In this document: in pieces, positions 22,642 through 23,981 of the stretch
Position numbering within the stretch: the stretch's first letter is position 1
How the letters are laid out: every line of letters starts with the position of its first letter
Origin: a phage
Direction: 5' to 3' (one strand)
Assembly (NCBI GenBank): GCA_024790105.1
Contig: GCA_024790105.1_3053.1
Length of the DNA stretch: 64,000 bases
Notes under the pieces: generated by a model
Told to the model about the DNA's origin: nothing
What the model saw: the letters and a program-made list of their open reading frames with translations, nothing else
Database searches by the model: none
Position numbers and translations under genes: made by a program

Positions 22642-23421
22642 TTAATTAAAAATATATACTTCATCAGTTCCATTCTTTTCTTTGGAATGATATATGTTAA
22701 AGACGTATTTTTTATTAAGATGCTTAACATTATATTTTTTAGACCATTCTTTAAGAAGAGTGTTTTCCTTTCCGTGATGCTCTAAAACATTCGACAGTCC
22801 AAATTTTATTCCTCTATCATTTAAAGAATCTAAAAGATTTAAAAGGTCTTTTTCTTCATCTTCTGACCAAAATTTATTATAATCAGCAACTGTTATAAGA
22901 TACGGAGGATCTACATATACAAAATCGCCGTCTAGAATTTTGACATCTTTAAAATGCAATGAACTAAAGATTATTTTATCACAATTTTGTTTAAAGTGAT
23001 TAAAGCGTTTTTCACTATTTTTGTTTATAGTTCTTTTTCCAAACGGAGTAGTAAAATTTCCTTTATCGTTTATACGAATCATATTACTAAACCCGTGAAA
23101 ATGAAGAACATAAAGTAAAAGAGGATCTCTAGTTTTATTATAATCTTCACGTAATTTCAAAAACTCTTCTTTTGATGTTTTTGATAGTTTATATTGCTTT
23201 ATTACTTTTAAAACGTCATCCCATGATACATTAATAAGACGCTTATACATTTCAATAATTGGTTCTTGAATATCATTGGCCAATACAGGACCATTGACGT
23301 TCAAAGACACTGATAAACCTCCACAAAATAAATCCACGAATCTGTCATATTTTGGAAAGTGAGGCTTAAGTTCAGGTAATAATGACTGTTTATTACCTGT
23401 ATACGCGATAGCTCCTAGCAT
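22642..23421 (-). CDS. dam: DNA adenine methyltransferase Dam
   Basis: 259 aa with DPPY motif; ATG 23421. Confidence 0.9.
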
Positions 23422-23981
23422 TATATTCTCTCATTTATTGCAGCAAAAAATGAATTATACAATTCATCATCATATGTATTTGATAGTAATACTAACACGT
23501 TTTGTGATTTAGCATATTCATTAAACCTTGCTTGGATGGTTGGATTATCAGTAAATGATTCTCTTTTTGTCCATTTATTACGTGGATAATATCCGCATGG
23601 CAAAAAATCTAATATCATCAATGACACAGGGTTTTCAGTTTTTGTGTATTCTTTTAATTTCTCTTTATCTTCTAAATATATTCCAACCGAATCAATAGCT
23701 GTACCTCCACCAACTTGATGTTTAATTTCAATTATATGCTTTTTACCGTTGCGAGAAATAACAATATCAAATCTTCTAGTACGCTTTTTAGTTATAAAAT
23801 TCGAACAAAACAAATTATTTGATTTTTCAGTATCATCGGTTAAAACCATTTTTTCTTGATAACTAACTGAACAATCAGTGAAATATTCTTTTACTTTATT
23901 AAGTATGAAATTTTCAACTACGGCAGATATTTTATATGAATCTCCGTTTAAAGCCATTTCATGCACAATTTTATTAATCAT
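23421..23981 (-). CDS. hypothetical protein with PD-(D/E)xK-like motif (186 aa), translationally coupled to dam
   Basis: ATG 23981 with GAGGATGATATA SD; [18 protein letters not shown]; stop overlaps dam start (TAATG). Confidence 0.7.

Follow-up and report, generated by a model that had tools for sequence, protein, structure and literature searches.

A restriction-endonuclease-like gene paired with dam in T4-like phages: a candidate restriction-modification-like module

For about 50 years, work on the Dam methylases of T4 and T2 has dealt with them as stand-alone enzymes without a clear purpose, and they have become a model for the mechanism of the D12 class. Did such an enzyme once have a partner? 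The question is raised by a 64,000-nucleotide stretch of phage DNA (GenBank assembly GCA_024790105.1, contig GCA_024790105.1_3053.1; hereafter the window), in which dam is immediately preceded by an open reading frame (ORF) of 186 codons. About 180 Tequatrovirus genomes, HY03, HP3 and T2 among them, share 96-98% identity with the 3.4 kb around this pair, and about 700 T4-like records match it in part. ORF186, as we call it (23421..23981, minus strand, ATG start), belongs to PHROG 8706, a family of unknown function. A preliminary description of the window had suggested, from a motif picked out by eye, that its product is a nuclease-like, possibly restriction-like partner of Dam, and this is supported here by the predicted fold, an invariant active site and constant adjacency to dam. 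Our preferred reading, which we hold at about even confidence, is that ORF186 encodes an active Mg2+-dependent PD-(D/E)XK endonuclease of the EcoRI/MunI-like type II class and forms with Dam a two-gene restriction-modification (R-M)-like module of T4-like phages.

Predicted fold and active site of ORF186

An AlphaFold2 model of the ORF186 protein was built on six family members (mean predicted local distance difference test score, pLDDT, 78.9; predicted template modelling score 0.79). Its secondary structure elements follow the order of the PD-(D/E)XK core, a mixed β-sheet flanked by helices (alpha-beta-beta-beta-alpha-beta), so that structure prediction returned a nuclease fold and not a non-nuclease one. 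The best structural match is the EcoRI/MunI family, with further matches to Can2, VC1899, McrC, BstEII, Bax1, BsoBI, BsaWI, NgoMIV, Bse634I, PspGI, AgeI and Cfr10I. Foldseek searches against PDB and BFVD recovered the PD-(D/E)XK superfamily again, more weakly.

Conservation was assessed in an alignment of nine family sequences with 29-63% identity to the window protein. Four acidic or basic residues, E23, D72, E85 and K87, are invariant across all nine homologues, and the last three form the conserved catalytic D...(D/E)-x-K signature of the superfamily. In the model D72 (codon 23766-23768) lies in strand 67-77, E85 (23727-23729) and K87 (23721-23723) lie in strand 80-88, and E23 (23913-23915) is carried by helix 1; the catalytic-core codons span 23721..23768, all on the minus strand. 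The D...E-x-K peptide on which the preliminary description relied is present at residues 71-87. Such a string alone is weak evidence; here it is backed by the fold and by invariance, with no loss of D72, E85 or K87 in any of the nine, and the by-eye motif call stands.

Three database proteins (P0008, P0010 and P0016) were left out of the alignments as chimeric or repetitive. In two of them the C-terminal portion of the nuclease is fused to unrelated enzymes, probably through chimeric assembly; the other is a 765-residue tandem-repeat protein with seven weak matches to the nuclease C-terminus, which are probably spurious.

The ExK motif runs into a second invariant element, K87-H-Q...G93-T-A-I-D-S98 (23688..23723, minus strand), a candidate for DNA recognition. 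It falls in a low-confidence loop of the model (mean pLDDT 51 for residues 91-100), and we read it as a predicted DNA-contact element that may become ordered on binding.

ORF186 aligns with PHROG 8706 over its whole length (E 1e-115), is complete and intact in about 155 phage records, and has homologues that keep the reading frame down to 29% identity. For these reasons we consider it, on sequence evidence, to be a real gene and not a chance ORF. The ratio of nonsynonymous to synonymous substitution rates among the homologues is 0.18-0.45, at saturated synonymous divergence.

Linkage to dam and loss of the nuclease gene in T4

Directly downstream lies dam (22642..23421, minus strand), encoding a T2-type D12 N6-adenine methyltransferase of 259 residues that acts on GATC. 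It matches PF02086 (E 7.6e-51) and TIGR00571 (E 1.1e-69), and its product differs from T2 Dam at one residue and from T4 Dam at five. The two genes meet at a TAATG (23419..23423, minus strand; ...ATA TAATG CTA... in the sequence), where the final A of the ORF186 stop codon TAA also opens the dam ATG, giving an overlap of one nucleotide. Both the list of ORFs and the junction sequence bear out what the preliminary description had said of this arrangement.

The linkage to dam is the strongest new evidence. A D12 methylase is found directly downstream of every homologue with readable context, abutting or overlapping. An endonuclease gene beside a methylase gene is the arrangement of type II R-M systems; the window, a Tequatrovirus sequence, has it with the 1-nucleotide overlap, and all eight other distinct contexts have it at 0-35 nucleotides. 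The latter come from Klebsiella phage KPV15 (Jiaodavirus; L003), a KPV15-like metagenome contig (L024) and the metagenomic loci L004, L005, L006-L009, L010 and L011, one new context having been added by scans of IMG/VR and metagenomes. In at least 149 phage records ORF186 and dam directly adjoin one another.

The pair occurs in three different neighbourhoods. It lies between the genes for primase and for dCTPase (gene 56) in Tequatrovirus-like genomes, between rIIB/denB and a topoisomerase gene in KPV15, and directly upstream of rIIA in L005. Identities of the nuclease and of Dam to the window copies fall in step (63/71, 57/72, 50/64, 43/62, 36/57 and 37/54%), and since they fall together in differing neighbourhoods, the two genes have evidently been passed on, and relocated, together. 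A Dam that lacks ORF186 is common, as in T4 and most of about 700 relatives, whereas the small sample available (a family of 11 cluster representatives) yielded no ORF186 homologue that lacks Dam downstream. This asymmetry is what would be expected if the methylase protects against its own nuclease. In KPV15 itself, a gene for a DenB-like endonuclease IV (L003 2075-2602; PHROG 1360, E 4.5e-68) has the nuclease-dam pair two genes downstream; DenB is a nuclease acting on cytosine-containing DNA.

The pair carries its own consensus transcription signals. A promoter scan found a TG-extended promoter-like site upstream of ORF186 (TTTACT-17-TATTAT; 24007..24035, minus strand), and a GAGGA Shine-Dalgarno sequence is read seven nucleotides before the ATG (23989-23993, minus strand). 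A terminator-like hairpin with an 11-pair stem followed by a T run (24084..24109, minus strand) occupies the gap between primase gene 61 and the promoter, parting the ORF186-dam unit from gene 61. The annotation of Yersinia phage fPS-65, made independently, has a predicted early promoter and a marked terminator at the equivalent positions.

From the overlap at the junction we infer that translation of dam may be coupled to that of ORF186. There are two caveats: dam is expressed in T4 without ORF186, and a frameshift variant of 181 residues, found in T2 and phage 107, stops 14 nucleotides before the dam ATG. This variant arises at a T/A homopolymer run near codon 178 (23436-23441), where a one-base change gives two C-terminal forms of the protein. 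The 186-residue form ends in ...FFAAINERI and overlaps the dam ATG; the 181-residue form ends in ...FLLQ at the stop 14 nucleotides upstream. The short T-run is carried by T2, by phage 107 and by the T4 remnant.

T4 has the same methylase (five substitutions), likewise placed between genes 61 and 56, and differs in the gene upstream, which is present in the window and in T2. A blastn comparison of the window with T4 showed that a 536-bp segment (23509..24044) is absent from T4, taking with it the promoter of the ORF186-dam unit, the Shine-Dalgarno sequence and codons 1-157 of the 186. The last ~29 codons remain in front of the T4 dam, with the two BLAST segments overlapping by three nucleotides (GAT) at the junction, and because this remnant is retained the T4 allele is a deletion and not an empty site. 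Other relatives hold different fragments, for example residues 122-179 or 159-186, and this variety points to repeated loss.

The difference between the two phages has a history of its own. Miner and Hattman are said to have described, in J Bacteriol in 1988, a 536-bp insertion 5' of dam in T2 relative to T4, a 1.67-kb XbaI fragment reportedly having been cloned first. In the window, 1666 bp separate the XbaI sites at 22931 and 24597, in agreement with a fragment of that size. The T2 dam record of 1988 (GenBank M22342, 1544 bp; L025) contains the whole nuclease ORF, with only dam annotated. That record shows an apparent frameshift near codon 37 that disrupts the ORF; the frameshift is absent from modern T2 records and is probably a sequencing error, and it may be the reason why ORF186 was never called.

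Relation to named restriction enzymes and competing readings

The ORF186 family is tiny. At E<=0.001 it has 11 cluster representatives among 1.84 billion; other searches gave 10-12 clusters among 5.8 billion. Wherever the context of a member could be read, it proved to be T4-like phage DNA. Neither word-indexed nor exhaustive protein searching turned up a relative in bacteria or a connection to any named family. PDB was searched by sequence, both with the single protein and with the profile of its family, and gave no match; an NCBIfam scan returned noise only, and among curated families none claims ORF186. No paper describing the protein was found in a literature search.

To the type IIP enzymes MunI and EcoRI there is no significant match in sequence. 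Using hhalign, residues 67-91 of ORF186 were aligned with residues 78-104 of MunI, whose sequence was checked against PDB, over 27 columns (E 0.0026, probability only 11%). This alignment pairs D72, E85, K87 and Q89 with D83, E98, K100 and Q102. We take D83, E98 and K100 to be the catalytic residues of MunI, from the published MunI structure work. EcoRI, its sequence likewise verified, gave no core alignment, and the likeness there is by eye and without statistical support (EAKHQ...GNAIERS in EcoRI and EIKRQ...GNAHERS in MunI, against EIKHQ...GTAIDSV in ORF186). Both MunI and EcoRI are PD-(D/E)XK enzymes of type IIP that leave 4-nucleotide 5' overhangs. ORF186 differs from them in that the GNAxER recognition motif is not conserved, being replaced by GTAIDS, in the spacer from ExK to this motif (5 residues in ORF186 versus about 15-26), and in its partner, which is a GATC methylase and not one of the AATT type.

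The second comparison is with DpnII and MboI, which cleave GATC when it is unmethylated and are partnered by Dam-class methylases, so that the methylase is of the same class and site as that of ORF186. Recurrent sub-threshold matches to Pfam DpnII were seen in four of nine family members (best E 8.3e-5), with matches to BanI too, and PADLOC 'type II REase' models matched three of the nine, also below threshold (best E 5.3e-6). Aligned by hhalign with a profile of 17 MboI-family proteins, residues 56-105 of ORF186 match MboI 170-219 in a 50-column core (E 0.0084, probability only 4.8%). Over this catalytic core F-D-[IF]-V-I...I-E...G-G-[GS] strings line up. ORF186 lacks the N-terminal ~125-150 residues of this ~280-residue family and has a different C-terminus, and we rejected membership of the DpnII/MboI family given the sub-gathering score, the core-only alignment and the missing N-terminal part. 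A distant relationship between the two catalytic cores is possible from these sequence comparisons. A route to a DpnII-type system through Dam was also tried. The closest plasmid relatives of the phage Dam (L012-L019; 37-43% identity), from Lactococcus, Enterococcus, Staphylococcus, Weissella and Lactobacillus, proved in eight of eight loci to be the methylase parts of AlwI- or FokI-type IIS systems, and this route was rejected.

Taken as an R-M-like module, the pair would act as follows. An early promoter at about 24007-24035 would give a bicistronic ORF186-dam transcript soon after infection, and the TAATG overlap would tie Dam synthesis to that of the nuclease. The nuclease, probably a homodimer by analogy with type IIP enzymes, would cut a short site, most likely GATC lacking N6-methyladenine, because GATC is the site methylated by the conserved partner, and the only hints at family level are of GATC enzymes. 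The phage genome would be shielded by Dam methylation of its own GATC sites, to which modified cytosines may add protection. The likely targets would be un- or under-methylated DNA in the infected cell, such as that of co-infecting or superinfecting phages without GATC methylation, plasmids, or dam-deficient host DNA. T4 would then be derived, having lost the nuclease by deletion while retaining the methylase, and its Dam would look like an orphan for that reason.

The closest working precedent, by analogy, is chlorovirus PBCV-1, in which an early GATC methylase, M.CviAI, is part of a viral R-M system (PMC7248222). Here too a lytic virus has an early GATC N6-adenine methylase within its own R-M pair (R.CviAI/M.CviAI), and the proposed logic is the same, self being methylated and other DNA cut. 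The likeness is not drawn from sequence: PBCV-1 is an unrelated virus of a eukaryotic host, and its activity is experimentally established whereas that of ORF186 is predicted.

Several observations weigh against the R-M-like reading. The match of the window protein to DpnII (PF04556) scores 16.7 bits, below the Pfam cut-off of 23, and covers only positions 152-235 of a profile of ~278. In the MboI alignment D72 and E85 pair with D186 and E199, but K87 pairs with N201, so that MboI has E-x-N where ORF186 has E-x-K. Since these matches are weak, confined to the core and discordant at K87, GATC specificity is suggested mainly by the partner methylase. The linkage to dam could partly reflect a single cassette acquisition followed by loss of the nuclease only. 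ORF186 has been lost in many phages, T4 among them, without obvious cost, and T2 and some other phages carry the frameshifted C-terminus of the 181-residue form. E. coli DNA is already Dam-methylated, so that a normal host would be left uncut by a GATC enzyme of the classical kind. T-even DNA contains glucosylated hydroxymethylcytosine, which may protect it without Dam. Finally, GATC is depleted in the window (71 observed versus 201 expected, 0.35), where it is the most avoided of all 4-bp palindromes, and we rejected this as evidence for a GATC nuclease because T4, without the gene, gives the same value (59 versus 163, 0.36, in NC_000866 1-50000; L027). Both phages methylate GATC themselves.

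The depletion has a place in another reading, in which ORF186 is a methyl-directed GATC nuclease, either DpnI-like, cutting fully methylated G(m6A)TC and so destroying host DNA while modified cytosine shields the phage, or MutH-like, nicking the unmethylated strand at hemimethylated GATC in the service of phage repair or recombination. Either mode would fit so strict a partnership with a GATC methylase, and a methyl-dependent enzyme would have an obvious target in the E. coli chromosome, which is Dam-methylated and is degraded by T-even phages in any case. We think this reading unlikely: structural or sequence similarity of ORF186 to MutH/Sau3AI and to DpnI was looked for and not found, and a methyl-directed activity supplies no reason for obligate linkage to dam in dam-plus hosts.

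ORF186 might instead be a PD-(D/E)XK protein with a role outside restriction (structure-specific, accessory to replication or recombination, regulatory for dam, or in decay as a relic), with a merely historical place beside dam. The spread of Foldseek matches over many nuclease types (Bax1, Hjc, RecU, Hef, XisH and R2 endonuclease) would suit such a protein, as would its dispensability in T4 and most relatives, the persistence of the 181-residue form in T2 and its absence from curated families. The invariant catalytic residues and purifying selection across 29-63% identity speak against it, a relic included; conservation of the pair and its overlap in three neighbourhoods argues against chance adjacency, and type II restriction enzymes supply both the highest-ranking structural neighbour and the only family matches that recur. 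We rate it as distinctly unlikely.

The weakest of the readings, a free-standing, selfish endonuclease of the homing type that in mixed infections cuts ORF-less alleles in or near dam and spreads by co-conversion, with dam as target and not protector, agrees with the patchy distribution and is improbable given the single compact domain without an extra DNA-binding module, the lack of GIY-YIG, HNH or LAGLIDADG matches in the family scans, the T4 allele that keeps the last 29 codons and is no empty site, and the divergence in step of ORF186 and Dam to 36%/57% identity with the stop/start overlap kept, which indicates long vertical co-inheritance as an operon.

Gene order at the locus and implications for T-even phages

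All four genes of the locus lie on the minus strand and are transcribed in the order primase gene 61 (24269-25297), ORF186, dam and dCTPase gene 56 (22063-22596). On the opposite strand to all its neighbours is a gene for a predicted membrane protein of 66 residues (24072-24272, plus strand; PHROG 2024, E 8e-31), which has a strong AAAGGAGG ribosome-binding site and a 3' end that overlaps the gene 61 stop by four nucleotides. It is conserved in T4 DNA, without annotation in NC_000866, and the minus-strand terminator-like hairpin falls inside it. Between gene 56 and soc (21684-22066, minus strand) the window has two small ORFs of 70 and 57 codons where T4 has the homing endonuclease gene segF; this is the T2-type arrangement.

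On sequence evidence, ORF186 appears to represent a previously uncharacterised family of restriction-endonuclease-like proteins, found solely in T4-like phages as obligate partners of Dam; the two together are of the type II R-M-like kind, carried by a virus. If the activity is as predicted, this would be a new and very small family of type II enzymes, possibly specific for GATC, and of interest to enzyme collectors.

More tentatively, and as a possibility to which we give clearly less than even weight, the 'orphan' Dam of the T-even phages may be the protective half of a phage weapon. A strictly virulent phage with hypermodified DNA would then make an early GATC-directed nuclease that destroys DNA without phage methylation, whether that of rival co-infecting phages or of the host or its plasmids; or the system may be inverted, marking and then cutting, as a shredder of host G(m6A)TC from which phage DNA is shielded by glucosyl-hydroxymethylcytosine. 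If ORF186 is the cognate nuclease, the T-even Dam would owe its origin to an R-M cassette of which it is the half that survives, the difference between T2 and T4 at the dam locus would gain a function, and a virulent phage with hypermodified DNA would be seen to carry offensive restriction, a case of DNA warfare of phage against phage or phage against host. T4, the reference strain, would then have hidden an offensive R-M system for decades by deleting its nuclease.
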